A stretch of DNA of 64,000 nt, from NCBI RefSeq assembly GCF_009931435.1, contig NZ_CP043414.1; one strand, 5' to 3'. Below, one piece after another: positions 1-22,083 of this stretch; within the stretch, counting starts at the first letter, position 1; each line of letters opens with the position of its first letter. Under the pieces are notes generated by a model that was given only the letters and a program-made list of their open reading frames with translations, was not told the DNA's origin and made no database searches. This DNA comes from Escherichia coli. GTDB lineage: Bacteria; Pseudomonadota; Gammaproteobacteria; Enterobacterales; Enterobacteriaceae. The translations under genes were made by a program, and so were the position numbers.

Positions 1-1
1 C

Positions 2-433
2 AGTGAAGGCATCATTAGCGAACCGGTCGGACAAATGGAATGGGATTTTGTCGTCAGCCCACTCCACCCACTGGCAGCGAAGCGGCATCCATTAGAAAAC
101 AGTGAATTGCGTCATTATCCAGCGGTTTGTATCCGCGATACCTCCGTTAACTTCCCCCCGATGCAAGCCTGGCTGTTGGAAGGACAAAAACCGATTTTTG
201 TTCCTGACTTCGCTACGGCAATCGCCTTAATAGAACAAAACGTCGGTATTGGTTATATTCCACATCATCTGGCATTGCCGTTATTGAACAGCGGTAAATT
301 GCTTAAAAAGCCAATGCGCGAACATAAACACGCCACCAAGTTATTTCTTGCCGCTCGTTCCGATGGTATGGGCAAAGCCTGTCAGTGGTGCATAGAATAT
401 TTAAGAAATCCGCAATTAATTTTCTGTTCCTGA
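2..433 (+). CDS. LysR-family transcriptional regulator, C-terminal effector-binding part (5' end lies outside window)
   Basis: Frame is open from window start (SEGIISEPVGQ precedes the listed M at 35). Translation has LysR substrate-binding-domain character (GIGYIPHHLALPLL). Identity of the regulator not recognised. Confidence 0.55.
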   Translation, partial: SEGIISEPVGQMEWDFVVSPLHPLAAKRHPLENSELRHYPAVCIRDTSVNFPPMQAWLLEGQKPIFVPDFATAIALIEQNVGIGYIPHHLALPLLNSGKLLKKPMREHKHATKLFLAARSDGMGKACQWCIEYLRNPQLIFCS

Positions 434-526
434 AGATCCACATCATACCTGGCATACATAGCAAAATGGCTTCCGGTGTTGGAAGCCATTATTGTGCTGC
501 AATTTACAATGACTCGTTAATACTCA

Positions 527-2788
527 TCATCCCCGACGCAAATTCTGCGCCGCCTGCACCATGTTCGCCAGTGCCGCGCGGGTTTCTGGCCAGCCGCGCG
601 TTTTCAAACCACAGTCCGGGTTAACCCACAGACGCTCTGCCGGAATGCGTTTTGCCGCTTTCTTCAGCAGGGACTCAATCCATTCCACGCTCGGTACGTT
701 TGGCGAGTGAATGTCATAGACGCCTGGACCAATTTCATTTGGATAATCAAACTCTTCAAACGACTCCAGCAACTCCATGTCGGAACGCGAGGTTTCGATT
801 GTGATGACGTCAGCATCCAGCGCCGCAATCGAATCCATGATGTCGTTGAACTCGCAGTAACACATGTGAGTGTGGATTTGCGTGTCATCTTTCGCTACGG
901 CAGCGTTGATACGGAAAGCCTCCACGCCCCACTGGAGATAGGCATCCCAGTCGCTGCGACGCAGTGGTAAACCTTCGCGCAATGCCGGTTCGTCAATCTG
1001 AATGATGCCAATTCCAGCGGCTTCCAGATCGGCCACTTCATCACGCAGCGCCAGCGCAATTTGTTTGGCGATGGTTTCACGGCTGACATCTTCACGCGGG
1101 AACGACCAGCAGAGAATGGTCACCGGGCCAGTCAGCATCCCTTTCACCGGTTTGTCGGTCAGCGATTGCGCATACTTTGCCCACTCCACGGTAATCGGTG
1201 CCGGGCGGCTAACGTCACCAATGACAATCGGCGGTTTCACGCAGCGGGAACCGTAGCTCTGTACCCAACCGTTTTGTGTAAAGACAAAACCGTCGAGGTG
1301 CTCACCAAAGTATTCCACCATGTCATTACGCTCGGCCTCACCATGCACCAGCACATCCAGACCCAGACGTTCCTGCTCAACAATGGCCTGCTTGATATGT
1401 TCTGCAATGCCCGTACGATAGTTGTTGGCGTCGAGATTACCCTTTTTGAAATCCAGACGCAGGGTACGGATTTCTGTGGTTTGCGGGAAAGAGCCAATCG
1501 TGGTGGTCGGCCACGCGGGCAGTTTAAAACGCGCACGCTGGGCTTCAGCACGCACTTCATAGACATTCGCACGCTGACTGTCCTGGGCGGTGATCGCCGC
1601 CAGACGCTTTTCTACTGCCGGATTATGTACACGAGTAGAGTGACGACGCGCCTGAATCGGTGCACTCCACTCTGCCAGAGCTGCCGTGTCACCACTGTTC
1701 AGCGCATCGCGCAGCAATGCCAGTTCATGGCATTTTTGCAGGGCGAAGGCAAACCAGCTTTTCACTTCTGCATCAAGACGCGTTTCCACGCTCAGGTCGA
1801 TAGGGCTGTGCAGCAATGAGCAGGAAGATGCCACCCACAAATCACGTTTGCCGACAATGTCCTTAATTTGCGCATATTTCTCGGTAAGATCGGCGCGCCA
1901 GACGTTACGACCATTGATAAGACCAGCAGATAGCAGCCAGTCAGAAGGCAGACGCTTGTGCAGTTCAGCAACGTCATCTTTACCATGTACGAGATCGACA
2001 TGCAGACCCTGAACAGGCAGCGCAGTAATGGTGTCGAGGTTTGGCGTTACGCCTTCAAAATAGGTAGTCAGCAGCAGTTTCACCTGGCCCTGGAGCGCGT
2101 CGTAAGCGGGTTTATAGGCGTCCAGCCACGCCTGCGGCAGTTCCAGCACCAGCGCGGGTTCGTCGATCTGTACCCACTCAATGCCACGTTTTGCCAGTTC
2201 TGCCAACACTTGCTGATAAACCGGCAGAATGTCGCTCAGCAGGCTCAGGCGATCAAACTGTTCACCTTTCACTTTACCCAGCCACAGGTAGGTAACCGGT
2301 CCCAGCAGCACGGGCTTGACCTTGTGGCCCAGCGCCAGCGCCTCGTCCACTTCCTCCAGCAGCTGCGTCCAGGTCAGTTTGAACTGTTGGCCTTTAACGA
2401 ACTCCGGCACCATGTAGTGATAGTTGGTGTTAAACCATTTGGTCATTTCCGCTGCCGCCGCAGGTTCGCCAGTCGGTGCACGTCCACGACCAATACGGAA
2501 CAGAGTGTCGATATCTACCGAACCATCTTTGTTCTGGTGACGCGCCGGAACGTTACCCAGCAGCAGACTGGTGGTCAGTACATGATCGTACCAGGCAAAA
2601 TCGCCCACCGGCAGCAGGTCGATACCCGCTTGCTTTTGTTGATCCCAGTGACGAGCACGCAGTTCACGCCCTACCGCCAGCAGTTCTTCACGCGTGGAGT
2701 TCCCCGCCCAATAACTCTCTTGCGCTTTTTTCAGCTCGCGACGCAGGCCAACGCGAGGGAAACCGAGGGTGTGATTCAATATTGTCAT
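527..2788 (-). CDS. metE: cobalamin-independent methionine synthase
   Basis: 753 aa ORF, N-terminus [23 protein letters not shown] matches MetE; ATG at 2788, TGA stop at 527. Confidence 0.97.
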
Positions 2789-3023
2789 TTTTCTTCCTCT
2801 AATTATATGTAAATCCTATGGATTTTGAATTTAGGGAAGGCGGCAAGTTTATTCATCCCCGGGAGCTTACTGAAGTAAGTGACCGGGGTGAAGAAACGCA
2901 GCCAACGCACCATAAATTTAAAAGACGAAGGATTTTAGCCGTCCAGATGTTTACACATCCATAATTGGCGGTTACTGTATATTCCTCAAGCGCAAATTAT
3001 TCATGCCGAAGTGAAGGACTTTC
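2789..3023. promoter_or_regulatory. metE-metR divergent control region (MetR and MetJ operator sites expected here)
   Basis: 235 bp between divergent metE and metR starts; contains ccgtccagatgtttacacatcc, resembling tandem met-box-like octamers. Site assignment is from known biology, not exact consensus matching. Confidence 0.5.
2830..2915. repeat. ERIC / IRU intergenic repeat element
   Basis: gggaaggcggcaag ... gggagcttactgaagtaagtgaccggggtgaag ... cgcagccaacgca matches the remembered ERIC core (AAGTAAGTGACTGGGGTGAGCG region and central palindrome). A second copy is near 54125-54192. Confidence 0.6.
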
Positions 3024-3977
3024 ATGATCGAAGTAAAACACCTGAAAACGCTACAAGCGTTGCGGAACTGCGGCTCACTCGCAGCCGCTGCGGCGACGTT
3101 GCATCAAACGCAATCCGCCCTGTCTCACCAGTTTAGCGATCTGGAACAACGCCTTGGCTTCCGGCTATTTGTGCGTAAAAGCCAGCCGCTTCGGTTTACA
3201 CCGCAGGGAGAAATCCTGTTGCAACTGGCGAATCAGGTGCTGCCGCAAATCAGCCAGGCACTGCAAGCCTGCAATGAACCGCAGCAGACGCGCCTGCGCA
3301 TTGCCATTGAGTGCCATAGCTGTATTCAGTGGCTGACGCCCGCGTTAGAAAATTTCCATAAGAACTGGCCGCAGGTGGAGATGGATTTTAAATCGGGCGT
3401 GACGTTTGACCCGCAGCCCGCGTTGCAGCAGGGTGAGCTGGATCTGGTGATGACCTCCGATATTCTGCCACGCAGTGGCCTGCATTATTCGCCGATGTTC
3501 GATTATGAAGTGCGTCTGGTGTTGGCACCTGACCATCCACTGGCGACAAAAACGCGAATCACGCCGGAAGATCTCGCCAGCGAGACGCTGTTAATTTATC
3601 CGGTGCAGCGTAGCCGACTGGATGTCTGGCGGCATTTTCTTCAGCCCGCAGGCGTTAGCCCGTCACTGAAAAGCGTCGATAACACCTTGTTGTTGATTCA
3701 GATGGTTGCCGCACGGATGGGCATCGCTGCGCTACCGCACTGGGTGGTGGAGAGTTTTGAACGCCAGGGTCTGGTGGTCACCAAAACCCTGGGCGAAGGC
3801 TTGTGGAGCCGACTGTACGCCGCCGTGCGCGATGGCGAGCAGCGTCAGCCGATTACAGAAGCGTTTATTCGCTCAGCGCGCAATCACGCCTGCGATCATC
3901 TGCCGTTTGTGAAGAGCGCGGAGCGACCCACTTACGATGCACCCACAGTGAGGCCAGGATCACCAGCGCGCCTGTAA
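3024..3977 (+). CDS. metR: LysR-family regulator of methionine biosynthesis
   Basis: 317 aa, N-terminus [36 protein letters not shown] (HTH of MetR); ATG at 3024. Confidence 0.95.
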
Positions 3978-4764
3978 TAAACGTTGGCCAGTGCGGCTGT
4001 TGGTGCCAGATAGCCAGGTTAACCAACAGCCCTGCCGGAACGTGCATATTATTCATAATGCCCAGCGTTCCGGCGTCCACCTGAGTCGCGCCGTAGTTCC
4101 ACATAAAGTAGCCAATCCCGGAGGCCACCACGCCAAGAAACACCAGAATGCCCCATTGCAGCGTGGTTTGCGGCATTTTCTGCGCATTTCCCAGCAAAAA
4201 CCATGCAATCACTGCCACCAGAAACGCGCCAAGATAGAACCACGCAAAGGCGTTATGCTGTGGCATCGGACGAGTTTCCATCAGGCGTTTGTAACCCACC
4301 ATGCCGATAGCAAAAGTGATATTGGAGAGTTGCACCAGCAGCAGGCCAGTCCAGAAGTGGTCGGTGACCTGATCATAGCGAATAATTCCGGCACCAATCA
4401 CCGCCAACAAGGCGCTAAAAGCATAGCCCCAGCGCAGACGGCGCTTACTCATGATGTCATAAATCAGCGTGATGTAGAGCGGCGTCAGTACGGTGAACAG
4501 CAACAGCTCGGAGACCGTCAGGTAGAGATAGGCGCGAAAACTCAGCATATACATCACGCCAAGCTGCATCGCGCCCACCAGCATATACAGACCGACCGTT
4601 TTCAGGCTATTGCCACGGGTACGCAGAAACGGCAGAAACACGAGTGCCGCCAGGCCAACGCGCACCAGCACTGCAAAATAGCTATCGACGTGCCCCGCAA
4701 GGTACTCGCCATAAAAGCTAAAGGAGAAGGCCCACAGAATCGTGGTGATGATAAGTAGCGCCAC
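3865..4764 (-). CDS. yigM: EamA/DMT-family inner membrane transporter (biotin transporter YigM/BioP)
   Basis: Highly hydrophobic ORF. Start trimmed to GTG at 4764 giving 299 aa beginning [15 protein letters not shown], which fits the remembered K-12 length. The 3' end overlaps the metR 3' end convergently. Confidence 0.85.
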
Positions 4765-4839
4765 AATGGAAAACTCTTTGATTAACGAGTATCCATTGTA
4801 GCGAAGTATCAGGTTGACAACTGGCCAAATAAAGAACAA

Positions 4840-5640
4840 TTACGATAAATAGAGTTTACGCAGATAATGCGGCACCGCATCGTCGGCATTAGTACCAATC
4901 ACTTCCAGCTCCGGATGCAGATCTTTCAGACGCTGGTGCGCACTGCCCATAATGCAGCCTTTACCTGCCATCGACAGCATTTCGGCGTCGTTCATCCCGT
5001 CACCAAAGGCAATACAATCTTTCAGACTGTAGCCCAGTTTCTTCGCCACCGCTTCCAGGGCATGGCCTTTTGAAACGCCGCCCGCCATCACTTCCAGACA
5101 AGTTAGGGTAGAGAAGCTGACGTTGACGCGATCGCCCCAACGAGCGTTGATTGCCTGTTCCAGCGGCAGCAGTTGTTCATGAGAATCACAGGTGAAGAAC
5201 ACTTTGCTGACGCCTTCCGGATCCAGTAATCCTGGCTCATACAGCGCATATTTGAACACCGCTTCTTTAAAAAAGCGCATCTCTTCCGGGCGGTGGCGAT
5301 TCATAAACCATTCGTCGTCGCGATAAACGTTAGTAATGATGTCCGGGTTGTCGTTGACCACGCCAAACAGATCGCTGGCAATGTCGCGATCCAGGTTATG
5401 AGCAAAAATCAGATTGCCATCCAGATCATGAACGCGCGCGCCATTGGAGGTAATCATGTAAGACTTAATCTCCAGATTATCGCGAATTTGCCCCACATCA
5501 ACGTGGTGGCGACCGGTCGCAAACACAAAGTTAATGCCGCGCGCGGTGAGGAGCTTCAGAGTTTCTTTGGCGTAAGGGGATAACGTATGGTCGGGAGAAA
5601 GTAACGTGCCATCTAAATCAGACGCAACAACCTGGTACAT
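4840..5640 (-). CDS. yigL: HAD-family sugar/pyridoxal phosphate phosphatase
   Basis: Start trimmed to ATG at 5640 (MYQVVASDLDGTLL, HAD motif DxDGT); 266 aa. The longer ORF upstream would run into pldB. Confidence 0.9.
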   Translation of the reverse strand: MYQVVASDLDGTLLSPDHTLSPYAKETLKLLTARGINFVFATGRHHVDVGQIRDNLEIKSYMITSNGARVHDLDGNLIFAHNLDRDIASDLFGVVNDNPDIITNVYRDDEWFMNRHRPEEMRFFKEAVFKYALYEPGLLDPEGVSKVFFTCDSHEQLLPLEQAINARWGDRVNVSFSTLTCLEVMAGGVSKGHALEAVAKKLGYSLKDCIAFGDGMNDAEMLSMAGKGCIMGSAHQRLKDLHPELEVIGTNADDAVPHYLRKLYLS

Positions 5641-5647
5641 AAGAAAT

Positions 5648-6670
5648 TTAAACCTCTGTAGAGCGGTTTCCGCTGGGTGAGTTATGCCTGTTGAAAAAAT
5701 CAACAATGGCGTGGAGCGCGACTGAGCGCATTGCGTCCTTTTCAAAAAGGATCTCATGGTACGCACCTTTAATTACCAGCGGTCGTCCCCCTTCGACAGG
5801 ATGGCCCGCAGCGGTGCGGAGTTCACAAAAACGGTCGTGCATGCGGTTATCCACCACGCGTTCCTCTTCAGCCTGCAAGAGAAGCGTTGGCGTGGCGTCA
5901 TCACCCGCACCGGCTAACACCTGTTCGCCAGCCAGAATACTTTCGCGTACCCAATGGTAGGTCGGCCCACCGACGCGAATCGTTGGGTCATCAGCATAGA
6001 AGCGTAAGTTACGTCGATATCGCTGTCTGCTGTGGGTCAGTACGTTGATAGCAAACGGCAACGCGCGCCAGCGCCCGGTGCCTATTGCATAGCCATCACG
6101 GAAACGTGGATGTGCTTCGGCCCAGTTAAGGAGCTGCCGCGCCATAAATGACGGCATACGAATCACGATCCCAAACATTGGCGCAGTTAGCGCAATGGCG
6201 TCACATACACCTGGATGGCGTTGCAGAAATAACGTGGAGATCGCACCGCCCATCGAATGTGCCAGTATATAGCGCTTACGCCACGGACCGGGCTGGACCT
6301 CCTGTTGCCAGAATGCCGCCAGATCATCAACATAATCATTAAAGCGATTAACATGCCCAAGATGCGGATCGGCTAACAGGCGACCGGAACGTCCCTGCCC
6401 GCGATGGTCGATGATTAAGACATCAAACCCCAAATGGAACAGGTCGTAGGCCAGTTCCGCATATTTTACGTAGCTCTCAATACGCCCCGGGCAGATGACT
6501 ATCACCCGGTCATGGTGCTGTGCGCGAAAACGGACAAAGCGCACCGGAATGTCATCTACACCAGTAAACTCTGCTTCATCACGCTGACGCCAGAAATCAG
6601 TCAGCGGTCCCATGGTAAAAGCAGCAAACGCGTTTTCTCTTGTTTCCCAGTCTTTTTGCTGCTGAAACAT
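5648..6670 (-). CDS. pldB: lysophospholipase L2
   Basis: 340 aa alpha/beta hydrolase with HSMGG nucleophile elbow; conserved position upstream of yigL. Confidence 0.93.
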   Translation of the reverse strand: MFQQQKDWETRENAFAAFTMGPLTDFWRQRDEAEFTGVDDIPVRFVRFRAQHHDRVIVICPGRIESYVKYAELAYDLFHLGFDVLIIDHRGQGRSGRLLADPHLGHVNRFNDYVDDLAAFWQQEVQPGPWRKRYILAHSMGGAISTLFLQRHPGVCDAIALTAPMFGIVIRMPSFMARQLLNWAEAHPRFRDGYAIGTGRWRALPFAINVLTHSRQRYRRNLRFYADDPTIRVGGPTYHWVRESILAGEQVLAGAGDDATPTLLLQAEEERVVDNRMHDRFCELRTAAGHPVEGGRPLVIKGAYHEILFEKDAMRSVALHAIVDFFNRHNSPSGNRSTEV

Positions 6671-6780
6671 CGGGTAATCTGCCTCTTAAACCACGTAAAA
6701 TCGTTTTTTTAAGCGTGTCTGACACAACGCTGCGACAGTAGCGTATTGTGGCACAAAAATAGACACACCGGGAGTTCATC

Positions 6781-7401
6781 ATGACCTTAGAATGGTGGTT
6801 TGCCTACCTGCTAACATCAATCATTTTAAGCCTGTCGCCAGGCTCTGGTGCAATCAACACCATGACCACCTCGCTCAACCACGGTTATCGTGGTGCGATG
6901 GCGTCTATTGCTGGGCTTCAGACCGGACTGGCGATTCATATTGTGCTGGTTGGTGTGGGGTTGGGTACGCTATTTTCCCGCTCAGTGATTGCGTTTGAAG
7001 TGTTGAAGTGGGCAGGAGCAGCTTATTTGATTTGGCTGGGTATCCAGCAGTGGCGTGCTGCTGGCGCAATTGATCTTAAATCGCTGGCCTCAACCCAATC
7101 GCGCCGACATTTGTTCCAACGCGCAGTGTTTGTGAATCTCACCAATCCCAAAAGTATTGTGTTTCTGGCAGCACTTTTTCCACAATTCATCATGCCGCAA
7201 CAGCCGCAAGTTATGCAGTATGTAGTGCTCGGCGTCACCACCATTGTGGTCGATATTATTGTGATGATCGGTTACGCCACCCTCGCCCAACGGATCGCGT
7301 TATGGATAAAAGGGCCGAAACAGATGAAGGCATTGAATAAGATTTTCGGCTCGTTGTTTATGCTGGTGGGAGCGCTGTTAGCATCGGCGAGACATGCGTG
7401 A
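6781..7401 (+). CDS. rhtB: LysE/RhtB-family homoserine/homoserine lactone exporter
   Basis: 206 aa membrane protein, N-terminus [28 protein letters not shown]. Confidence 0.93.
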
Positions 7402-7408
7402 AAAATAA

Positions 7409-7440
7409 TGTCGGATGCGGCGTAAACGCCTTATCCGACT
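7409..7440. repeat. REP (repetitive extragenic palindrome) unit
   Basis: tgtcggatgcggcgtaaacgccttatccgact between the convergent rhtB and rhtC genes. Confidence 0.6.
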
Positions 7441-7462
7441 TACTCTGATGACGCGTCTGGCA

Positions 7463-8083
7463 TCAACGCGAAATAATCAAATGAATACCAAATCCGGCAA
7501 ATAACGCCCCGGCAAAACCATCAATCCACTTCGCCAGACGTTGATAACCACGGCGCATTTGCGGCAGGGCAAACAGGCTGGCAACGACGGTAAACCACGC
7601 CAGTGTTTCGATAATAATCAACGCGAAAATGCCCCAGCGCTCAGTAGTGCCGACGTTATCGCCGACAAACAGCGAGAATACCGAACCAAAGTAGATAATC
7701 GCTTTCGGATTGGCGAGATTGGTCAGTAAGCCTTTCAGGAAACTGCGCCCGCTTTTTGCCAGTTCTACCTGTGGCGCAGGCGCAGAAACGACCTCTTTTT
7801 TCAGTGCGCTACGCAGCATCTGATAACCCATCCAGCAGAGATACAGGCCACCGCCCACCATAATCAGCGTATGCAGCCAGGCCATTTTTTCGATAATCAA
7901 ATGCAGGCCAAGCAACGCGATCCCTGCCCAGACCATTACGCCGCAGGTAATGCCCAGCACGCCCATCATCGCTTCTTTGCGCGAACGGCTAACGGCAGTC
8001 TGGGAGACAAAAAAGAAATCGGGACCGGGGCTCATAAGCGCCACAATGTGCACCATGGCGACGGTGAGGAATAACATCAACAT
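7463..8083 (-). CDS. rhtC: LysE/RhtB-family threonine exporter
   Basis: 206 aa paralog of RhtB, N-terminus MLMLFLTVAMVHIVALMSPGPDFFFV. Confidence 0.93.
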   Translation of the reverse strand: MLMLFLTVAMVHIVALMSPGPDFFFVSQTAVSRSRKEAMMGVLGITCGVMVWAGIALLGLHLIIEKMAWLHTLIMVGGGLYLCWMGYQMLRSALKKEVVSAPAPQVELAKSGRSFLKGLLTNLANPKAIIYFGSVFSLFVGDNVGTTERWGIFALIIIETLAWFTVVASLFALPQMRRGYQRLAKWIDGFAGALFAGFGIHLIISR

Positions 8084-8146
8084 ACAATTGACTCGCGGGG
8101 AAATCGTTTACGGAGTCTTCATCCTGGCACTTTTTTATGCTGCTGA

Positions 8147-9976
8147 CTACTCTTCGTCATCGCCATCGACATGCGCACGAATCAGCGCCATAAACGGTTT
8201 GCCAAAGCGTTCCAGCTTGCGCATCCCAACGCCGTTAACGCTGAGCATTTCGCTGGCGGTGATTGGCATCTGTTCCGCCATCTCAATCAAGGTCGCGTCG
8301 TTAAACACCACGTACGGCGGGACATTGCTTTCATCGGCAATCGATTTACGCAGTTTGCGTAATTTGGCGAACAGTTTGCGATCGTAATTGCCACCGAACG
8401 ATTTCTGCATCGCTTTCGGTTTGAGCGCCACAATACGCGGCACGGCAAGTTGTAAAGAGGATTCGCCGCGCAACACCGGGCGTGCGGCTTCTGTCAGTTG
8501 TAATGCCGAATGCTGGGCGATGTTTTGCGTCACCAGACCGAGATGAATCAACTGGCGGATTACGCTCACCCAGTGCTCATGACTTTTATCGCGGCCCATG
8601 CCGTAGACTTTCAGTTTGTCATGACCATAGTCGCGGATTCGCTGGTTATTCGCACCGCGAATCACTTCCACTACATAGCCCATACCAAAACGCTGATTCA
8701 CACGACCAATGGTGGAAAGCGCAATCTGCGCATCGGTTGAACCATCGTACTGTTTTGGCGGATCGAGACAGATATCGCAGTTCCCGCACGGCTCCTGCCG
8801 CCCTTCGCCAAAGTAATTCAGCAGCACCAGACGACGACAGGTTTGCGCCTCAGCAAACGCGCCCATCGCATTGAGTTTATGACGTTCGATATCCTGCAAC
8901 TGCCCCTGCGGTTTTTCTTCCAGGCAACGGCGCAGCCACGCCATATCGGCCGGATCGTAAAACAGCATCGCTTCCGCGGGCAGGCCATCACGCCCGGCGC
9001 GACCGGTTTCCTGATAATAGGATTCGATATTGCGTGGAATATCAAAGTGAACCACGAAGCGGACGTTAGGCTTGTTGATGCCCATGCCGAACGCTACCGT
9101 CGCCACCACAATTTGCAGGTCATCGCGCTGGAATTTTTCCTGCACGTCCGCACGGACATCGTTTTCAAGCCCGGCGTGATAAGCCGCTGCGCTGATACCC
9201 TTGCTTTGCAGACGCGCGGCGGTGTCTTCTACTTTCGCACGACTATTACAGTAAATAATCCCCGACTTACCGCGTTGTTCCTGCACGTAGCGCATCAGCT
9301 GATCGAGAGGTTTGAACTTCTCCATCAGCATGTAGCGAATATTCGGACGGTCAAAACTGCTGATTTGAATCAGCGGATCGTTCAGCCCCAGCAGGCGCAC
9401 GATATCCTGCCGCGTGGTGTCGTCGGCGGTGGCAGTCAGCGCCATAAACGGCAGCGTCGGAAAACGCTGACGCAGCTGACCGAGGGCAGCGTATTCCGGG
9501 CGGAAATCGTGGCCCCATTGGGAGATACAGTGCGCTTCATCAACGGCTAATAACACCGGATTCCAGTGCGCCAGATGCTCAAGGAAGTTATCCAGCATCA
9601 GGCGTTCCGGCGCGATATACAGCAGGCGGATTTGCCCGGTGCGGCAGCCTGTCATTACTTCAAGCTGCTGCTCGCGGGTTTGCGTCGAGTTAAGGCACGC
9701 CGCCGCCACGCCGTTGGCCTGTAGCTGATCCACCTGATCTTTCATCAACGAAATCAGTGGTGAAACAACCACGGTAAGACCGTTTAGCAGTAAGGCAGGA
9801 ATTTGATAGCAAAGGGATTTTCCGCCACCAGTGGGCATGACGACCAGGCAATCGCGACCGGAAAGTACGGTGTCGATAATCTCTTCCTGGCCGGGGCGAA
9901 ACTGTTGGTAGCCAAAGGTTTCTTGTAAAACCTGTTTAGCCCCGGACTCCAGATTCAACACTTCCGCCTGCGCCAC
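8147..9976 (-). CDS. recQ: ATP-dependent DNA helicase RecQ
   Basis: 609 aa; Walker [13 protein letters not shown] box ([15 protein letters not shown]), zinc-binding Cys cluster, HRDC C-terminus. Confidence 0.96.
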
Positions 9977-9995
9977 ATTAACCCCGATTGCCTGA

Positions 9996-10026
9996 AATAA
10001 AAACAGGCGCTATTTTCAGCGCCTGC
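9996..10026 (-). terminator. rho-independent terminator downstream of pldA
   Basis: Inverted repeat caggcgct/agcgcctg with 6-nt loop; on the minus strand the stem is followed by a T-run (A-run aaataaaaa on plus strand). Confidence 0.55.
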
Positions 10027-10107
10027 GCGAGAAACTGCAATGCTTTTAGTCTCTGAGAGGGTAATCCTGGATGCTGGATTCCAGTTTTGCCTTTCAATCA
10101 ACTCACA

Positions 10108-10977
10108 TTAGAACAAGTCGTTCAGCATAACCCCCACACCCACACGGGTCTGGTTAAAGTTATAGTCGATGAGCGATTCGCCATAACCGCTGTAAACCTG
10201 GGTATAAAGGCGCACATGCCTGGTGATCGGGTAACTTAAGCCTAACTCCGCACCACCGTAACCGGTGTTCCAGTTGTACTGTCCTTTCGCACTCAGCACC
10301 GCATCACCCAGGTGATAGCCGATTTTAAGCTGGTAGTAACCCATATATTTGGTGATATCTGGGTTATCGTCAGTATTCCCCACCACATACCACGGCTTCA
10401 CCTCTACCAGCCAGTTACCGTTTTCTGCCATCAGACGGGTATAAAGGCGGTTCCAGCTGCGGGAAGTCGGGTCTGAACGCCCGTTAGAGTCGTGGTTATA
10501 ACCCATCTCCACATCGCGCAGCGTCCAGCCAGCAAAGCGGTAATCTGTGGCAAAACCAAGGAACAATTGCGGTTCGTAGTTGGTTTCACGAAACGGTGAA
10601 GACTCTTCGCTATTGGACAGTTGCCACCAGGATTTTTGCGTGTAAGAAGCCCCCAACACCGAATTTGGCCCCAAGATTCCGCGCCACAGCGGAAATGCCA
10701 GGCTCAACTGGAATTTCACTTCATCCTTACGCGCGTTTTCCGCCCAGTCATAACTGGCAATCGCTTCTTTATTCAGATCGCTGGTTTGGGTGTAGATGAG
10801 GTAGTTGGTGTCATAAGGATAGAGCGTGAAAGGATTGTCATGCTCCTGCAGCATATTCGCAATAATACTGCCACGCACCGCAGGCGCGTCATGCACCTCT
10901 TTTACCGTTGCCTCTTGCGCATACACTGCCATTGGCAACATAAACACCGGCAACAACCAGCCCTGCAGAGTCCGCAT
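10108..10977 (-). CDS. pldA: outer membrane phospholipase A
   Basis: 289 aa, signal peptide MRTLQGWLLPVFMLPMAVYA then beta-barrel-like sequence typical of OMPLA. Confidence 0.95.
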   Translation of the reverse strand: MRTLQGWLLPVFMLPMAVYAQEATVKEVHDAPAVRGSIIANMLQEHDNPFTLYPYDTNYLIYTQTSDLNKEAIASYDWAENARKDEVKFQLSLAFPLWRGILGPNSVLGASYTQKSWWQLSNSEESSPFRETNYEPQLFLGFATDYRFAGWTLRDVEMGYNHDSNGRSDPTSRSWNRLYTRLMAENGNWLVEVKPWYVVGNTDDNPDITKYMGYYQLKIGYHLGDAVLSAKGQYNWNTGYGGAELGLSYPITRHVRLYTQVYSGYGESLIDYNFNQTRVGVGVMLNDLF

Positions 10978-11141
10978 CGGTCGTGTTCTCCGTAACGAAT
11001 TATTGATTAGATGAATATTTTTCTGCGGGCTATTTTACATACTTAACTCCTTTGCCGTTAGTTATCCCTTCCTAAAGTAGAAACCAACAAAAAAGAAGCA
11101 TAAAATCAACATTTCATTAACTAATGAAGTGTAAGGATGAT

Positions 11142-11609
11142 ATGTCTGCCGTACTGACCGCTGAACAAGCCCTGAAATTAGTGGGTGAGATGTTTGTTTA
11201 TCACATGCCATTTAACCGCGCATTGGGGATGGAACTGGAGCGTTACGAAAAAGAGTTCGCACAGCTGGCCTTTAAAAATCAGCCAATGATGGTGGGTAAC
11301 TGGGCGCAAAGCATTTTGCACGGCGGGGTCATTGCGTCGGCGCTGGATGTCGCCGCCGGTCTGGTGTGCGTGGGAAGTACCTTAACCCGCCACGAAACCA
11401 TCAGTGAAGATGAACTACGCCAGCGGCTATCGCGAATGGGGACCATTGATCTTCGCGTCGATTATCTGCGCCCAGGCAGGGGTGAGCGTTTTACTGCTAC
11501 CAGTAGTCTGTTGCGTGCGGGCAATAAAGTCGCCGTCGCCCGCGTTGAATTACACAATGAAGAACAGCTTTATATAGCCAGTGCCACCGCCACCTATATG
11601 GTAGGTTGA
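11142..11609 (+). CDS. yigI: PaaI/YigI-family acyl-CoA thioesterase
   Basis: Start trimmed to ATG at 11142 ([18 protein letters not shown]), which has an aaggatga SD upstream; hot-dog fold-like sequence. Confidence 0.85.
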
Positions 11610-11660
11610 TAACGTAAAAGCAGGTAAACTGCTTTTACCCATAAAAAATGAGTTTTGCCA

Positions 11661-12551
11661 ATGGACACCAAACAAACGCGGCAGGGCGTATTACTCGCTC
11701 TTGCCGCTTATTTTATTTGGGGTATTGCGCCAGCGTACTTCAAGCTGATTTACTACGTGCCCGCCGATGAGATCCTGACGCATCGCGTGATCTGGTCGTT
11801 TTTCTTTATGGTGGTGCTGATGAGCATTTGCCGCCAGTGGTCCTATTTAAAAACGCTGATTCAGACACCAAAGAAAATCTTCATGCTGGCCGTCTCTGCC
11901 GTGCTGATTGGTGGCAACTGGCTACTGTTTATCTGGGCGGTGAACAATCACCATATGCTGGAAGCGAGCCTTGGTTACTTTATTAACCCGCTGGTGAACA
12001 TTGTGCTGGGGATGATTTTCCTCGGCGAGCGATTCCGCCGGATGCAATGGCTGGCGGTGATTCTGGCGATATGTGGTGTATTGGTCCAGCTCTGGACTTT
12101 TGGTTCGCTGCCAATCATCGCGCTGGGGCTGGCGTTTAGTTTTGCCTTCTACGGCCTGGTACGCAAGAAAATTGCCGTTGAAGCGCAAACCGGCATGTTA
12201 ATCGAAACCATGTGGCTGCTGCCCGTGGCGGCGATTTACCTGTTTGCTATTGCCGACAGCTCAACCAGCCATATGGGGCAAAACCCGATGTCGCTGAATT
12301 TACTGCTGATCGCCGCCGGTATTGTCACCACCGTGCCACTGTTATGTTTTACCGCAGCAGCTACACGCTTACGACTCTCAACATTAGGCTTTTTCCAGTA
12401 CATTGGGCCGACGCTAATGTTCCTGTTGGCAGTGACGTTTTATGGTGAAAAACCGGGAGCCGATAAGATGGTGACTTTCGCCTTTATTTGGGTAGCGCTG
12501 GCAATTTTTGTGATGGATGCGATTTATACGCAGCGTAGAACGTCCAAATAA
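11661..12551 (+). CDS. rarD: EamA/DMT-family transporter RarD
   Basis: Start trimmed to ATG at 11661 (MDTKQTRQGVLLALAAYFIWG); about 10 predicted TM segments. Confidence 0.9.
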   Translation: MDTKQTRQGVLLALAAYFIWGIAPAYFKLIYYVPADEILTHRVIWSFFFMVVLMSICRQWSYLKTLIQTPKKIFMLAVSAVLIGGNWLLFIWAVNNHHMLEASLGYFINPLVNIVLGMIFLGERFRRMQWLAVILAICGVLVQLWTFGSLPIIALGLAFSFAFYGLVRKKIAVEAQTGMLIETMWLLPVAAIYLFAIADSSTSHMGQNPMSLNLLLIAAGIVTTVPLLCFTAAATRLRLSTLGFFQYIGPTLMFLLAVTFYGEKPGADKMVTFAFIWVALAIFVMDAIYTQRRTSK

Positions 12552-12854
12552 ATATATTCTGAAAAAATATGCCTGCTCTTGCATGAGAGTGGGCATATTG
12601 TCATGCTGACAGGATACTCACATAAGGAAAGGCAGAATTTCCAGACGTCGTTGTATATTTTCATTTGCTTTAATAAATTCCATTTTTGGTAAATTCAGCA
12701 TTATGTTATTAGCGATGAGCAAGACCAATCATTAACCAAGTTCTCTTCAGAATGTAATGAAAAATGTGAAGTGCATTTCTTTTTTAAAAATTTTTTACCC
12801 TATTATTTCTTATCAAATTAACATTGCCCTTAATTATAAGAAAGGAGAATATAA

Positions 12855-13703
12855 ATGAACAACATATTAGGCTCATCAATTAATATGCCCTGTACACTTT
12901 TCGAAACTATTACTTTATTCGATGATTTCTCTGCTGATGATATGCAGTATGGGGATATGGAAGAACAAGATTTTCTCTCACTCGGCTTAAGCGACATCTC
13001 TGCAAAAGTTGATCCTTACCGCCTCATTAAATACCATTTTCCTGGGCCGAATTCTACTTATGGTGCTTTTAGTATTCCAACTTCTGGAACAAAAATATCA
13101 CAAAGTGAATGTATTGATATTTTATTTGCAGAAATGAAAGATCTGGCAAAAATGTTTTCCTTTTTTGGACAATACAAAACACTCATCCAGGATCTGATTG
13201 ATCATTTTAGATATGGAAATGGCAACAGTTTCCATAGCCAGGAATTGAACTTATCTTTTCATGAACGAATAAACAAATATGATTATAATAGCCCAATACG
13301 TGTAATCAAAGAATGTATCGAAAATGATATTTCTTCAACACCTACGATAGGATACCGGCCTCTTCTCCTACAAAAGATTAAGACCGAATTACTTTCATCA
13401 AGACTAAATAAATTCAATGATTTTAAAGATAATTTTAATGGCCTGGGAATCAGCATTCATGATATCTCAGCTCAAAAAATATCTCTTTTAAATTTTCAAA
13501 AATATCCTATGGGCTGGAGCGCTACCATTCATTTCATAGCACAAGACCACTTTGGTTTGGATGTGACTGATATAAAAAACAAGATTTACAACAAGTATAG
13601 ATTTTTTCGCATATGGTTCTTTTTACAACGGCATAAAGACTTTGCTTTCAAACCTTTTTTTACCAATTTTAACACTATCGAAAGAATCGAAAATTATCTA
13701 TGA
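12855..13703 (+). CDS. hypothetical protein (282 aa), accessory; no family recognised
   Basis: Strong SD aaggag 7 nt upstream of ATG; no signal peptide; acidic N-terminal region; AT-rich codon usage (about 35-38 % GC in sampled 60-mers versus about 50 % in flanking core genes); stop overlaps the next gene's ATG (ATGA). Confidence 0.65.
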   Translation: MNNILGSSINMPCTLFETITLFDDFSADDMQYGDMEEQDFLSLGLSDISAKVDPYRLIKYHFPGPNSTYGAFSIPTSGTKISQSECIDILFAEMKDLAKMFSFFGQYKTLIQDLIDHFRYGNGNSFHSQELNLSFHERINKYDYNSPIRVIKECIENDISSTPTIGYRPLLLQKIKTELLSSRLNKFNDFKDNFNGLGISIHDISAQKISLLNFQKYPMGWSATIHFIAQDHFGLDVTDIKNKIYNKYRFFRIWFFLQRHKDFAFKPFFTNFNTIERIENYL

Positions 13704-14197
13704 AAAGCAAACTCCAGAAAATTATATTATATTTATTTCTTCTATGCTGCATCTATAATTTATGGACATTGCGTCCTGTACAGATTTTGTATACATACTC
13801 TGATGCTGGCAATTCAGTCTTTCTGGTCGTTGATCATCTGCCATGGACTGATAGCGATAAAATAAATTGGTATCTGAAGCATCAGGATGAAATTAAAAGT
13901 CAAAATCCCCTACCAGAAGGTAGTTGGCATACCTGGTATGTTATTGATATCGGTAATGGCTTCACTGACTATAAAAAATATATCGAAGGGCCGTATGAAG
14001 ATCTCTACTGTTTCCCGACGATTAAGAGCAATGATAATTGCATCGTAAAAAACTATTTAATGGTTATTAATGAATATCCTTACCGTAATACTCATTTTTT
14101 TATTGCTGATAACAATGAGTATCAACTAACCCAGGAAAATAAGATAGAGCGAGTGTTCAACCCGCATGACTTTGAAAAAGACAATTTTCAGCAATAA
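13700..14197 (+). CDS. hypothetical membrane-anchored protein (165 aa), accessory
   Basis: ATG overlaps upstream stop (translational coupling). N-terminus MKSKLQKIILYLFLLCCIYNLWTL is a basic N-region plus one hydrophobic helix (signal peptide or signal anchor); the rest is a Trp/Tyr-rich soluble domain; AT-rich. Confidence 0.6.
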   Translation: MKSKLQKIILYLFLLCCIYNLWTLRPVQILYTYSDAGNSVFLVVDHLPWTDSDKINWYLKHQDEIKSQNPLPEGSWHTWYVIDIGNGFTDYKKYIEGPYEDLYCFPTIKSNDNCIVKNYLMVINEYPYRNTHFFIADNNEYQLTQENKIERVFNPHDFEKDNFQQ

Positions 14198-14232
14198 GCC
14201 GGATAAAGAACAATCTTTACCCGGCATTTATA

Positions 14233-15183
14233 TTACAACCAGTTCTTCCGCTTAAAGTACAGATACGGTGCCAGGCCCGCGAGGATCATAAAGATAATCG
14301 CGCCTGGGTAGCCGAAGCTCCACTTCAGTTCCGGCATAAACTCAAAGTTCATCCCGTAGCTGGAAGCGACCAGCGTCGGTGGCAGGAACACCACGGATAC
14401 CACCGAGAAGATTTTGATGATGCGGTTCTGCTCGATATTGATAAAGCCCATCGCCGCCTGCATCAGGAAGTTCACCTTCTGGAACAGGGATTCGTTATGC
14501 GGCAGCAGGGATTCGATATCTCGCAGGATTTCACGCGCCTGTTCCAGTTGTCCACCCGGTAAACGCGCTTTACGCACCAGGAAATTGAGCGCACGCTGGG
14601 TATCCATAAGACACAGGCGAACTTTCCAGCCGATATCTTCCAGCTCCGCCAGTGTGGAGAGTGCTTCGTCGTACTCATCGCCCTGATGCCCTTCCATAAT
14701 TACCCGGCTCAACTGCTCCAGGTCGCTGTAGATATTTTCAATTTCATCTGCCAACTGTTCGATTTTGGTTTCGAACAGATCCAGCAGCAGCTCGTAGGCG
14801 TTACCGTCCACCATTGACTGGCTACGGGCACGCATACGATACAGACGAAAAGCGGGTAGCTCGCGCTCACGCAGGGTAAACAGGCGACCGTCGCGGATGG
14901 TAAATGCCACAGTGGAGTTACCGGCGTGATCTTCCGCATCTTCAAAGAAGAAGAAGGAGTGAATATGCAGGCCGTCATCGTCTTCAAAGAAACGCGCCGA
15001 TGCTTCGATGTCTTCCAGTTCTGGGCGTGTTGCCAGGCTCTGCCCAAGTTCAGATTGTACGCGCAGTCGCTCGTCGTCATCCGGTTCGACAAGATCAATC
15101 CATACTGCATTTACAAGGGGTTGTGACTCTTCGACTTCCAGCCGGGTCAGTCGGTTATTTTCCAGTTGAAATGCGCTCAGCAT
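14233..15183 (-). CDS. corA: Mg2+/Co2+ transport protein CorA
   Basis: Start trimmed to ATG at 15183 ([19 protein letters not shown]); C-terminal TM helices with YGMNF signature motif. Confidence 0.95.
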
Positions 15184-15552
15184 GACCGGGACTCCCAATG
15201 CTTAAAATATCGGACAGTTCGGTGGGCACACAGAAACAAATTGGGTTTCAGACCATTAAACAGCCTGACTCAGCGCGACGGGAAAAATTGAGGTCGCTGA
15301 CAACCGCTAAGGCTATCAGCAAAAAGGGATAGCCTTAGGAGTTGATCCTGGATGACAGGATAATGAGCCAGTATCTACTGGGTGTGTCCAAGGCGAATGT
15401 CCTCTTAGAGTGATCGTGCGCGCATGTTACGCCAGCAAAATTTTGCCGTCAACACGCAACAGAACACCACAGAACAATAGTTGAACTTCGCGCTTTTTGG
15501 TACTCGTCAAGGTCGCTAACAGGATAAAAAAATCCCACATCCAGGACCTATA

Positions 15553-16317
15553 ATGGCGCATCGGCTACTCATTGGTAAAGGAATGATCACCTTGAATCTC
15601 AAACGGATTTTTCTCGCCCTCACCTTACTTCCCTTGTTTGCTGTTGCCGCTGATGATTGCGCATTATCAGATCCGACACTGACCGTACAGGCGTATACCG
15701 TTAATCCTCAAACAGAGCGGGTGAAAATGTACTGGCAAAAAGCCAATGGCGAAGCGTGGGAAACGTTACATGCGCTGCTGACGGATATTAATAGTCAGGG
15801 TCAGGTGCAAATGGCGATGAACGGCAGCATATATGATGAAAGCTATGCGCCGCTCGGTTTGTACATCGAAAACGGTCAGCAGAAGGTGGCGTTAAATCTC
15901 GCTTCAGGTGAAGGGAATTTCTTTATCCGTCCTGGCGGTGTGTTTTATGTCGCGGGAGATAAAGTCGGCATCGTTCGTCTGGATGCCTTTAAAACCAGTA
16001 AAGAGATTCAGTTCGCGGTGCAGTCAGGGCCAATGTTGATGGAAAACGGCGTCATTAATCCGCGTATTCATCCCAACGTCGCCTCACGCAAAATTCGTAA
16101 CGGTGTTGGGATTAATAAACAAGGGAACGCCGTGTTTTTGTTGAGCCAGCAGGTGACAAATTTTTATGATTTTGCCTGTTATGCCAAAACGAAACTGAAC
16201 GTTGAGCAACTGCTTTATCTTGATGGCACGATTTCACATATGTATGTGAAAGGCGGGGCAATCCCGTGGCAACGCTATCCTTTTGTTACCATGATTTCCG
16301 TCGAGCAGAAAAGTTAA
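15553..16317 (+). CDS. yigE: secreted hypothetical protein (K-12 YigE-like; DUF2233 from memory)
   Basis: 254 aa with N-terminal signal peptide (LALTLLPLFAVAA); conserved position between corA and uvrD. Confidence 0.85.
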   Translation: MAHRLLIGKGMITLNLKRIFLALTLLPLFAVAADDCALSDPTLTVQAYTVNPQTERVKMYWQKANGEAWETLHALLTDINSQGQVQMAMNGSIYDESYAPLGLYIENGQQKVALNLASGEGNFFIRPGGVFYVAGDKVGIVRLDAFKTSKEIQFAVQSGPMLMENGVINPRIHPNVASRKIRNGVGINKQGNAVFLLSQQVTNFYDFACYAKTKLNVEQLLYLDGTISHMYVKGGAIPWQRYPFVTMISVEQKS

Positions 16318-16351
16318 AACAACCGTTTTGTGTCACTGAATATGGTGCAGA

Positions 16352-16456
16352 TGCCGGATGCGGCGCAAACGCCTTACCCGGCCTACATGACATTGCAATT
16401 TATTGAATCTACATGATTTTGTAGGCCGGATAAGGTGCGCAGCACCGCATCCGGCA
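16352..16456. repeat. BIME (two inverted REP units)
   Basis: gatgccggatgcggcgcaaacgccttacccggcctaca and its inverted partner tgtaggccggataaggtgcgcagcaccgcatccggc between the convergent yigE and uvrD genes. Confidence 0.6.
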
Positions 16457-16459
16457 ACG

Positions 16460-18622
16460 TTATACCGTCTCCAGCCGGGCGTAAGCCGCCACCAGCCATT
16501 TAATACCCTGGCCCTGAAATGCCACCTGCAAACGACTATGTTCGCCGCTGCCTTCCATATTGACGATGGTGCCTTCACCAAACTTGGCGTGGCGTACGCG
16601 CTGGCCGAGCTTGTAGCCGCTGTCGTTCTCGACCATCGGCGTACCCATCCGTTGATGGCTGACCGGGCGGCTTACCGTAGCGCGTAAACGCACCTCTTCC
16701 ACACACTCTTCCGGCAACTCGCCAATAAAACGCGACGGGCGATGGTAAACCTCTTTGCCATACAGACGCCGGGTTTCCGCGTAGGTCAGCGTCAGTTTCT
16801 GCATCGCGCGGGTTACGCCAACGTAGGCCAGACGGCGTTCTTCTTCCAGACGCCCGCCTTCATCCAGCGACATCTGGCTTGGGAACATCCCCTCTTCCAT
16901 ACCGACAATAAACACCTGCGGGAACTCCAGACCTTTCGCCGAGTGCAGCGTCATCAACTGCACCGCGTCCTGCCAGGTGTCCGCCTGTCCTTCACCCGCT
17001 TCCAGCGCGGCATGAGACAGAAACGCCTGTAACGGCATTAAATCTTCGTCTTCTTCGTTGTACGCAAACTGGCGCGTCGCCGTCACCAGTTCGTCTAAGT
17101 TTTCGATTCGCGTCTGGCCTTTTTCGCCCTTCTCTTGCTCGTACATGGTGCGCAGGCCGGAGTCTTTAATTACCCGATCAGTCTGTACATGCAGCGGCAT
17201 ATCGGCAGTTTCTTGCGCTAAGGCGTCGATCAGTTCCATAAACCGTTGCAAAGCGCTGGCAGCACGCCCGGCGAGCGCTTTTTCCTGCAATAATTCGCGG
17301 CACGCCTGCCAGAGTGTTAACTGGCGATCGCGCGATGTCTGACGTACCACGTCCAGCGTCCGGTCACCAATACCCCGCGTTGGCGTATTCACCACGCGCT
17401 CAAAGGCCGCGTCGTCGTTACGGTTGGCAATCAGGCGCAGATACGAGAGCGCATCTTTGATTTCCTGGCGTTCGAAGAAGCGCATCCCGCCATAAATACG
17501 GTACGGCATACTGGCTTGTAATAACGCCTCTTCCAGTACACGCGACTGGGCATTGCTACGATAGAGAATGGCGCACTCGGCGAGCGCCCCGCCGTTGTCC
17601 TGCCAGGTCTTGATGCGGTTAACCACAAAACGCGCTTCGTCGAGTTCGTTAAAAGCGCAATAGAGGGAAATCGGCTCACCGTCCGCGCCATCGGTCCACA
17701 ACTTTTTACCCAAACGCCCGTTGTTGTTTTCAATCAGGGCGTTCGCGGCGCTCAGGATATTGCTGGTAGAGCGGTAGTTCTGCTCCAGACGGATAGTTTC
17801 GGCACCGGGAAAATCATTGAGGAAACGCTGAATGTTCTCGACCTGCGCCCCGCGCCAGCCGTAGATTGACTGGTCGTCATCGCCAACGATCATCACTTTG
17901 CCAGTATCGCCTGCCAGCAGTCGTATCCACGCGTACTGAATGTTGTTGGTATCCTGGAATTCGTCCACCAGGATATTGGTAAAACGTTCGCGGTAGTGTT
18001 GCAGAATATGCGGCTTGTTAAGCCACAACTCGTGAGCGCGCAGCAGCAGCTCGGCGAAGTCCACCAGGCCCGCGCGGTCACACGCTTCCTGATACGCCTG
18101 ATACACCTTCTGCCAGGTCTGCTCCACCGGGTTACCGTAGCTTTGAATATGATGCGGACGCAGCCCTTCATCTTTCTGGCTGTTGATGTACCACATTGCC
18201 TGGCGCGGTGGCCACTGCTTCTCGTCGAGGTTCATAGCTTTGATCAGACGCTTAAGCAGGCGCAGCTGGTCTTCGCTGTCGAGGATCTGGAAATCCTGCG
18301 GCAGGTTGGCGTCCATATGGTGCGCACGCAGCAGACGGTGTGCCAGCCCGTGGAAAGTGCCGACCCACATACCGCCCTGGCTGGTGCCCATCAGTTGCCC
18401 GATACGATGACGCATTTCCGCCGCCGCTTTGTTGGTAAACGTCACCGCCATAATCGAGTACGGCGAGCAGTTTTCCACACTCATCAGCCAGGCGATACGA
18501 TGCACCAGTACGCGCGTCTTACCACTGCCCGCGCCCGCCAGCACCAGAAGGTTGCTGCGTGGCGCGGCCACCGCTTCGCGCTGTTTGTCATTAAGGCTGT
18601 CGAGCAGGTAAGAAACGTCCAT
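16460..18622 (-). CDS. uvrD: DNA helicase II (UvrD)
   Basis: Start trimmed to the ATG giving MDVSYLLDSLNDKQREAVAAP (720 aa); the longer 782 aa ORF starts from a TTG inside yigB. Walker A AGAGSGKT, UvrD/Rep helicase motifs. Start coordinate has +/-1 uncertainty from hand indexing. Confidence 0.95.
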   Translation of the reverse strand: MDVSYLLDSLNDKQREAVAAPRSNLLVLAGAGSGKTRVLVHRIAWLMSVENCSPYSIMAVTFTNKAAAEMRHRIGQLMGTSQGGMWVGTFHGLAHRLLRAHHMDANLPQDFQILDSEDQLRLLKRLIKAMNLDEKQWPPRQAMWYINSQKDEGLRPHHIQSYGNPVEQTWQKVYQAYQEACDRAGLVDFAELLLRAHELWLNKPHILQHYRERFTNILVDEFQDTNNIQYAWIRLLAGDTGKVMIVGDDDQSIYGWRGAQVENIQRFLNDFPGAETIRLEQNYRSTSNILSAANALIENNNGRLGKKLWTDGADGEPISLYCAFNELDEARFVVNRIKTWQDNGGALAECAILYRSNAQSRVLEEALLQASMPYRIYGGMRFFERQEIKDALSYLRLIANRNDDAAFERVVNTPTRGIGDRTLDVVRQTSRDRQLTLWQACRELLQEKALAGRAASALQRFMELIDALAQETADMPLHVQTDRVIKDSGLRTMYEQEKGEKGQTRIENLDELVTATRQFAYNEEDEDLMPLQAFLSHAALEAGEGQADTWQDAVQLMTLHSAKGLEFPQVFIVGMEEGMFPSQMSLDEGGRLEEERRLAYVGVTRAMQKLTLTYAETRRLYGKEVYHRPSRFIGELPEECVEEVRLRATVSRPVSHQRMGTPMVENDSGYKLGQRVRHAKFGEGTIVNMEGSGEHSRLQVAFQGQGIKWLVAAYARLETV

Positions 18623-18680
18623 TGGCACCGCCGCGTAAAAATAGGTTGGGCGGAGAAGCGCAACGCCCTCCGCCAAAAAG

Positions 18681-18696
18681 CTGGGTATATATACAG
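18681..18696 (-). promoter_or_regulatory. LexA (SOS) box of the uvrD promoter
   Basis: Minus strand reads CTGTATATATACCCAG, a CTGT-N8-ACAG-type SOS box, about 60 bp upstream of the uvrD start and inside the yigB 3' coding end. Confidence 0.5.
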
Positions 18697-18705
18697 ATTT
18701 GCTGA

Positions 18706-21843: not shown

Positions 21844-21879
21844 CATTTACTCCAATCACGCGGGTACAGAAACTGACTT

Positions 21880-22083
21880 TTAGTAATTCACCTGGGATGG
21901 GCCATCGCCAGTGGCGCGGTCGTTTTTATCCGGCACCGTGGATTGCGTTTGCGTCTCTACCGGTTTGGTCGGTGGCGGTGCGTTTTTATCTGCAGGCGGG
22001 AAATAGAGCGGACCTTTCAGACCGCAGCCCGTCAGGCTGAAGAGAGTAAGTAATACAGTGAGTGCCTTAAACACGTTTTTCAT
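21880..22083 (-). CDS. lptM: small lipoprotein LptM (YifL)
   Basis: 67 aa; lipobox LTGC in MKNVFKALTVLLTLFSLTGC, followed by a Pro-rich tail. Confidence 0.85.
   Translation of the reverse strand: MKNVFKALTVLLTLFSLTGCGLKGPLYFPPADKNAPPPTKPVETQTQSTVPDKNDRATGDGPSQVNY

Follow-up and report, generated by a model that had tools for sequence, protein, structure and literature searches.

The regulator gene fragment and its metE flank

The window, by which we mean the whole stretch of 64,000 nucleotides analysed, opens in the 3' part of a LysR-type regulator (LTTR) gene (positions 2-433, plus strand), which was delimited from the list of open reading frames and a PF03466 match. It comprises 143 codons followed by a TGA stop at 431-433, and its frame is open from the window edge without a frameshift or an internal stop. 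The 143-aa fragment matches the Pfam family LysR_substrate (PF03466) with an E-value of 1.2e-18 (67.7 bits, cut-off 28), which is far beyond chance, and covers profile positions 68-205 of 209, that is, most of the effector-binding domain. The LysR-type effector-binding domain that an earlier note had read from the letters is therefore confirmed by profile analysis. The first 155 codons, with the wHTH domain, precede window position 1. At the protein level, the fragment is 100% identical to residues 156-298 of WP_000470717.1 from E. coli B (NEBExpress), while its nucleotides differ from the B-strain allele only at positions 173 and 193, both differences being synonymous. The full-length B-strain protein has 298 aa and carries HTH_1 (PF00126, E = 1.1e-16), and both domains expected of an LTTR are thus present, LysR_substrate in the window and HTH_1 in the B-strain protein. 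The regulator is already known, as it stands in RefSeq under WP_000470717.1. A PDB sequence search with the regulator returned only a remote match, the effector domain of YhaJ (E = 8.6e-13), and hence gives no structural anchor for the effector pocket.

The regulator gene is convergent with metE (527-2788, minus strand, 753 aa), which was identified by gene call and synteny as the conserved flank and is followed by metR (3024-3977, plus strand, from the gene calls). The 93-bp spacer between the two stop codons contains a hairpin at 465-490 with an 11-bp stem, AATGGCTTCCG-GTGT-TGGAAGCCATT, found by folding, which on the minus strand is followed at its 3' side by UUUUGCU. Its folding z-scores are weak (-1.1 on the plus and -1.8 on the minus strand), and a consensus terminator scan left this hairpin unflagged. 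CFT073 keeps the stem with a different loop. Judging from its position and sequence, the hairpin probably serves as the metE terminator and as a weak terminator of the LysR gene, replacing a different hairpin between ysgA and metE in K-12.

The metE gene itself is mosaic and unusually diverged. Its identity to E. coli B and K-12 varies between 92% and 98% in 250-bp windows over 501-2750; over 2751-3250, which takes in the metE-metR intergenic region and the first part of metR, identity is 97-100%. Further into the window (12629-12687), the DNA after rarD lacks about 1 kb that E. coli B has there, with yigG, yigF, and a fragment of corA. A DUF3289 (YPO3983-family) gene (12855-13703) lies between rarD and corA (region 12855-14364), an arrangement shared by B and the closest genomes, where a DUF943 gene comes next. 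Between lptM and cyaY, an ORF of 685 aa (22242-24299, plus strand) has no Pfam match and is called 'hypothetical protein' in the closest genomes; we know of no K-12 gene at this position between lptM and cyaY.

The ysgA-metE island and its distribution

In MG1655, ysgA and metE are convergent and 39 bp apart, and udp follows ysgA. These are the K-12 neighbours that the earlier note had named, and the doubt it cast on them can be dropped. According to the alignment, 8,552 bp of the B strain stand in for 60 bp of K-12, namely the terminal 17 bp of ysgA, the entire spacer of 39 bp, and the metE stop codon with one further base. In NEBExpress, eight genes that all point the same way lie between ysgA and metE, the regulator (WP_000470717.1) being the last; they are annotated in order as cysteine hydrolase, DUF2877, FdrA-like, DUF1116, carbamate kinase, "allophanate hydrolase-related", "cytosine permease", and LysR. 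The corresponding roles, in the same order, are an isochorismatase-family hydrolase (BiuH/RutB-like), AllH-, AllF-, and AllG-like proteins, carbamate kinase, an allophanate-hydrolase C-domain protein, an NCS1 permease, and the LTTR. In CFT073, these eight genes are followed by RpiR, tkt, ptsG, hxlB, and a tssD pseudogene, after which comes metE.

Alignments to the B strain and K-12 assign window positions 1-530 to island-specific DNA, the right end of the ysgA-metE accessory island. The alignment to K-12, like that to the closest island-free genome, begins only at 531, and the variable segment includes the third base of the last Gly codon of metE and its stop codon (527-529), which reads TGA in the window but TAA in K-12. 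Positions 421-530 align at about 86% identity with the metE-proximal end of the 16-kb tkt1 island in CFT073, and the short and long island forms part at 420/421. This changes the last four to seven residues of the regulator, which ends in ...NPQLIFCS* in the window versus ...NPQLMTQFVFN* in CFT073; the orthologues of other genera end differently from both E. coli forms (...ARLSGG). At the 420/421 break there is a short TTA(A)TTT(T)CT-like microhomology, and the short form may have arisen from the 16-kb form by deletion or the reverse; the adjoining 110 bp common to both are only about 86% identical.

The whole gene is visible in contig L016 (ENA ERZ27238060), which was found by look-up of the window's exact MetE protein and differs from the window by three mismatches in 12,788 bp, the nucleotides of the fragment being identical. 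Here, the regulator gene has its full 298 codons, starts 464 bp before window position 1, and carries HTH_1 and LysR_substrate in its gene call; upstream of it come the remaining seven genes of the island, followed by ysgA and udp. The eight-gene block is thus represented by its right junction in the window and by the remainder in L016, and the presence of the island in the source genome is inferred from this near-identical contig. No integrase, transposase, IS element, or direct repeat was seen at the chromosomal island ends. By these alignments, the window opens in a regulator gene at the right end of an accessory island of about 8.5 kb between ysgA and metE, which is an ordinary difference between strains with nothing rearranged. 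The synteny differs from K-12, as the earlier note had considered, because K-12 lacks the island, whose right end takes the place of the K-12 ysgA-metE junction.

Among 5,426 complete E. coli genomes, the K-12-type ysgA/metE junction occurs in 3,537, and the LysR-metE junction, with window positions 1-530 fully covered, in 361, including NEBExpress. Positions 1-420 alone are matched in about 1,200 further genomes, e.g., CFT073, where the LysR gene is followed by the tkt1 module. The island is missing from K-12 and about two thirds of E. coli, and the window represents a minority accessory state; the regulator is not a core gene normally beside metE, the finding that the earlier note had said would overturn its reading. 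The gap between ysgA and metE has at least five states, including the empty K-12 state, the 8-gene island, the 16-kb tkt1 island, a state with the tssD remnant only (strain N96, contig L005), and an aconitase-type occupant. The last was observed beside metE in two contigs that encode the window's exact MetE (L015, and L018 at 12297-22262), and consists of genes for FAA-hydrolase, an aconitase B-like protein, aconitase, an isocitrate/isopropylmalate-dehydrogenase-family protein, and PrpF.

The regulator is also matched at 128 places on large E. coli plasmids, with about 94% identity in the two plasmid records listed. The complete eight-gene block was observed on plasmid pGZM7a (L006, 4249-12427), between IS and relaxase remnants, and the dN/dS of this plasmid's regulator allele (0.2-0.36) is above that of the chromosomal alleles. 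The latter have a dN/dS of 0.03-0.04 among themselves, and the regulator gene is therefore under purifying selection.

With respect to its age, the island in the window's lineage shares 94-99% identity (mean about 97.5%) with that of B, like the flanking core DNA, and the island of strain E69 is about 95.5% identical to the B island. The closest complete E. coli genome is only 98.6% identical to the window over positions 531-20000. Strain E69, the single hit when species-representative genomes were scanned with a 40-mer spanning the two synonymous variants, is 95.3% identical to the window. Window positions 1-530 reach 99.6% identity to the B strain, with the adjoining metE at about 95%. A recent transfer of the island, which we had read from this jump, was dropped, as the whole island is 94-99% identical and mosaic like the core; by this comparison, the 99.6% stretch is a local mosaic patch.

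Two further readings of the junction can be weighed on these data. The gene might be truly truncated or decayed in the source strain, a pseudogene remnant left at the metE border after island loss; the window shows only the last 143 codons, and the ysgA-metE locus holds remnants elsewhere, such as the tssD pseudogene in N96 and CFT073. However, the fragment has no stops or frameshifts and only two synonymous changes from the B allele, the dN/dS is that of a gene under constraint, and L016, a contig with three differences in 12,788 bp, has the 298-codon gene and all eight island genes, so that such decay is highly improbable. Because of the full-length copy in L016 and the dN/dS values, the regulator gene is almost certainly intact, cut by the window edge only, with the island lineage accounting for the synteny. 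Of the truncation that the earlier note had described, only the cut at the window edge stands. The other reading is a recent insertion or rearrangement at this site by a mobile element in the source strain, to which the at least five occupants of the hotspot, the same eight genes between IS remnants on plasmids, and the 99.6% identity over 530 bp beside metE at about 95% would lend some weight. Nevertheless, the chromosomal borders are without integrase, transposase, or direct repeats, the whole island is as diverged from that of B as the core is, and the only about 95.5% identity of the E69 island points to long residence in Escherichia; a recent event is thus quite improbable, though less so than decay of the gene. 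By these identities, the island is an old presence/absence polymorphism at a hotspot, and homologous recombination in the flanking DNA best accounts for the existence of forms with and without it. The local rearrangement or insertion suggested in the earlier note holds insofar as an accessory segment is present, but this is an old polymorphism that has already been published and not a fresh rearrangement.

Linkage to enzyme genes, a predicted operator, and the proposed role

Orthologues of the regulator in Edwardsiella (83% identity), Silvimonas (63%), and Caballeronia (57%) stand behind the same seven genes in the same order, within unrelated flanks. A 47% orthologue on a Motilimonas-like contig (L019) stands in front of the same seven genes, and here too the flanks differ. 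A Klebsiella variant keeps AllH, AllF, AllG, carbamate kinase, and LysR with a different permease, and a 36% homologue sits within another AllF/AllG/carbamate-kinase/AllH cluster. All four Pfam families (AllF, AllG, AllH, and carbamate kinase) were found in L016 and in the orthologous clusters, and the eight genes move together on E. coli plasmids. The regulator thus stays linked to these enzyme genes across Gamma- and Betaproteobacteria.

The Klebsiella variant is from a K. quasipneumoniae contig (L008, 3337-17109), where genes for xanthine/uracil permease, AllH, AllF, AllG, carbamate kinase, and LysR adjoin a Tn3-family transposase, a class A beta-lactamase, and a metallo-beta-lactamase/PRAI/DsbD_N/CutA1 run. 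This run resembles a blaNDM context, and the metabolic module appears to hitch-hike with resistance DNA in this contig.

PunR binds a validated palindrome, TsttwTCAAwAwwwTTGaaGGCA, with adenine required in vitro (PMC8376909). Within the 40.5 kb of the B-strain locus, the PunR-type core TCAAWAWWWTTG has a single occurrence, which precedes the first island gene by 181 bp; the PunR-type palindrome TCAAAAAATTTG is located at this same distance. A second, degenerate palindrome, GCAAAAATTTCG, is found 112 bp upstream of the first gene and about 55 bp before a -10-like GAATACT, i.e., at about -65, near the classical position of an LTTR site. Both palindromes are also present in L016. The corresponding promoters in Edwardsiella, Silvimonas, Caballeronia, and the Motilimonas-like contig also contain the motif, with two perfect ATCAA...TTGAT palindromes in the last. 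As a background, 12 matches were counted in 632,684 positions, and eight of them are these promoter sites.

A strong hairpin (-28.4 kcal/mol, z = -3.84) was also noticed in the spacer between the NCS1 permease and the LysR gene (L001, 19460-19536). The permease-regulator spacers of other genera (L007, L009, and L010) have other sequences and likewise form hairpins, and that of Silvimonas is a textbook terminator with a T-run. Their recurrence points to a conserved, putatively attenuating structure ahead of the regulator gene, which suggests that the regulator may be expressed at a low level by read-through.

Taken together, the linkage, the family, and the operator evidence make it likely that the protein is a dedicated regulator of the adjacent island operon. 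As a pathway-specific activator, it would bind the predicted palindromes TCAAAAAATTTG and GCAAAAATTTCG through its N-terminal wHTH, while the C-terminal domain that the window encodes would recognize a small effector rich in nitrogen, probably the substrate itself or an intermediate. Effector binding would then switch on the uptake and breakdown of a ureide-like compound, the breakdown proceeding through an AllFGH-type transcarbamylase and carbamate kinase to NH3, CO2, and ATP. We consider it very probable that the fragment comes from the C-terminal end of an island LTTR that is intact and functional, this regulatory role being included in the assessment.

The position of the gene is a counterpoint, since most LTTRs are divergent from their targets and this one is co-directional with its presumed target and lies at its 3' end. 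The LTTR might accordingly be linked to the enzymes by inheritance only, with the operon run by PunR, Nac/NtrC, or an AllR-like factor and the regulator acting elsewhere or on itself. In addition to the gene position, the promoter motif is the PunR operator core, to which chromosomal PunR could bind, and the punC promoter needs Nac as well as PunR (PMC8376909). Yet the linkage has outlasted changes in order, with the regulator at the 5' end in the Motilimonas-like contig and the transporter swapped in Klebsiella, which is hard to explain without a functional tie, and the palindromes also occur in the betaproteobacterial and Motilimonas-like clusters beside the regulator orthologue. Linkage by inheritance only is thus unlikely, while it is the least improbable of the rival readings weighed. 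The regulator has also been considered as a MetR paralogue, a second MetR-like factor acting on metE and methionine metabolism and not on the island, as it is adjacent and convergent to metE and as MetR, another LTTR, lies across metE. Against this, it shares only 24% identity over 176 residues, in the N-terminal half, with the window's own MetR, so MetR orthology fails. Moreover, the CFT073 regulator is 7.5 kb away from metE, and no metE is nearby in Edwardsiella, Silvimonas, Caballeronia, or the Motilimonas-like contig, where the enzyme genes are always present. A role at metE was rejected on this identity and synteny and is hardly credible.

As to the pathway, the island hydrolase scores best against the biuret amidohydrolase BiuH, with 279.8 bits and hence short of the cut-off of 370, and next against RutB, and the AllFGH/carbamate-kinase-like proteins are only 33-49% identical to K-12 AllFGHK. 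AllFGH has been reported to be an oxamic transcarbamylase (PMC11326118). From its predicted gene content, the island has the appearance of a pathway for a nitrogen compound of the ureide type, with carbamoyl phosphate and ATP as its end products. It is conceivable, as a tentative proposal that we hold to be somewhat less than an even chance, that this is a catabolic route new to E. coli, in which the NCS1 permease would import a ureide (biuret-, allophanate-, or oxalurate-like), the BiuH-like hydrolase would deamidate it, and a second transcarbamylase of the AllFGH type would carry out its phosphorolysis, with ATP formed by carbamate kinase and the LTTR acting as sensor through the ATCAA-N-TTGAT palindromes. 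If true, this would be a defined unit of regulator, operator, and pathway in E. coli B/BL21 and most B2 ExPEC that is absent from K-12.

Comparison with known systems

The island and its site have been described before. The tkt1 genomic island of ExPEC (APECO1_2632-2646 of APEC O1), located between metE and ysgA, was published in 2012 (PMC3349570), and the same island was listed in 2026 as 'GR 29' of BEN2908 (PMC12928451). The window island occupies the same chromosomal site, and its eight genes, from the hydrolase to the LysR gene (the equivalent of APECO1_2639), have about 97-99% nucleotide identity to those of the tkt1 island. Unlike the 16-kb form, in which tkt1, ptsG, hxlB, and RpiR lie between LysR and metE, the window form is short; the 7.5-kb module of RpiR, tkt1, ptsG, hxlB, and the tssD remnant is absent, and the regulator abuts metE with 93 bp between the stop codons. 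E. coli B/BL21-type strains have the same short form. The window edge falls inside a common accessory island at a known hotspot, and what remains of value is annotation: a regulator and seven genes for enzymes and transport are tightly co-inherited in E. coli B/BL21 and in most extraintestinal pathogens of group B2.

NCBIfam ranks PunR (NF008294) first with 286.7 bits (cut-off 345) and AllS (NF007501) second with 214.3 bits (cut-off 372), and since neither score reaches its cut-off, function can be transferred from neither. BLASTP identity to the K-12 proteins is 34.6% for PunR (full length), 34.4% for YahB, and 33.7% for AllS, and the genes of the latter two adjoin the two AllFGH/carbamate-kinase clusters of K-12.

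YahB is the K-12 LTTR beside yahDEFGHIJ, which is likewise a DUF2877-FdrA-like-DUF1116-carbamate-kinase cluster. Of the four island enzymes compared, three have their closest K-12 paralogue in this cluster, namely the FdrA-like protein (YahF, 42%), the DUF1116 protein (YahG, 46%, by score), and carbamate kinase (YahI, 49%), while the DUF2877 protein of the cluster, YahE, is only 26% identical. However, yahB lies on the strand opposite to yahDEFGHIJ and two genes away, and YahB is itself uncharacterised and hence offers no functional anchor.

AllS is the LysR-type activator of allDCE in the K-12 allantoin regulon. Like the island regulator, it is an LTTR associated with an AllFGH-type transcarbamylase and carbamate kinase (allFGH-allK, i.e., fdrA-ylbE-ylbF-ybcF). 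The island enzymes differ from these as paralogues, with identities of 41% to AllF, 49% to AllG, 33% to AllH (over the aligned C-terminal stretch of 110 residues only), and 39% to the carbamate kinase, and allD, allC, and allE are absent from the island. The regulator is not an AllS, as its score lies far below the family cut-off and its locus is not that of the allantoin regulon.

In E. coli K-12, PunR (YdhB) is a LysR-type protein that activates punC, a gene for a purine/nucleoside transporter (PMC8376909). The island regulator does not belong to this family, given its score below the cut-off and its neighbours, which are an NCS1 permease gene and metE and not punC. The two also differ in layout, the PunR gene being divergent from an MFS transporter gene, whereas the island regulator is co-directional behind an operon of enzymes and an NCS1 permease. 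Nevertheless, PunR is the top NCBIfam family, the core of its validated operator, TCAAwAwwwTTG, is found in the island promoter, and both regulators are tied to the use of nitrogen-rich heterocycles. The predicted PunR-like operator offers a handle for finding the nitrogen compound on which the island acts.
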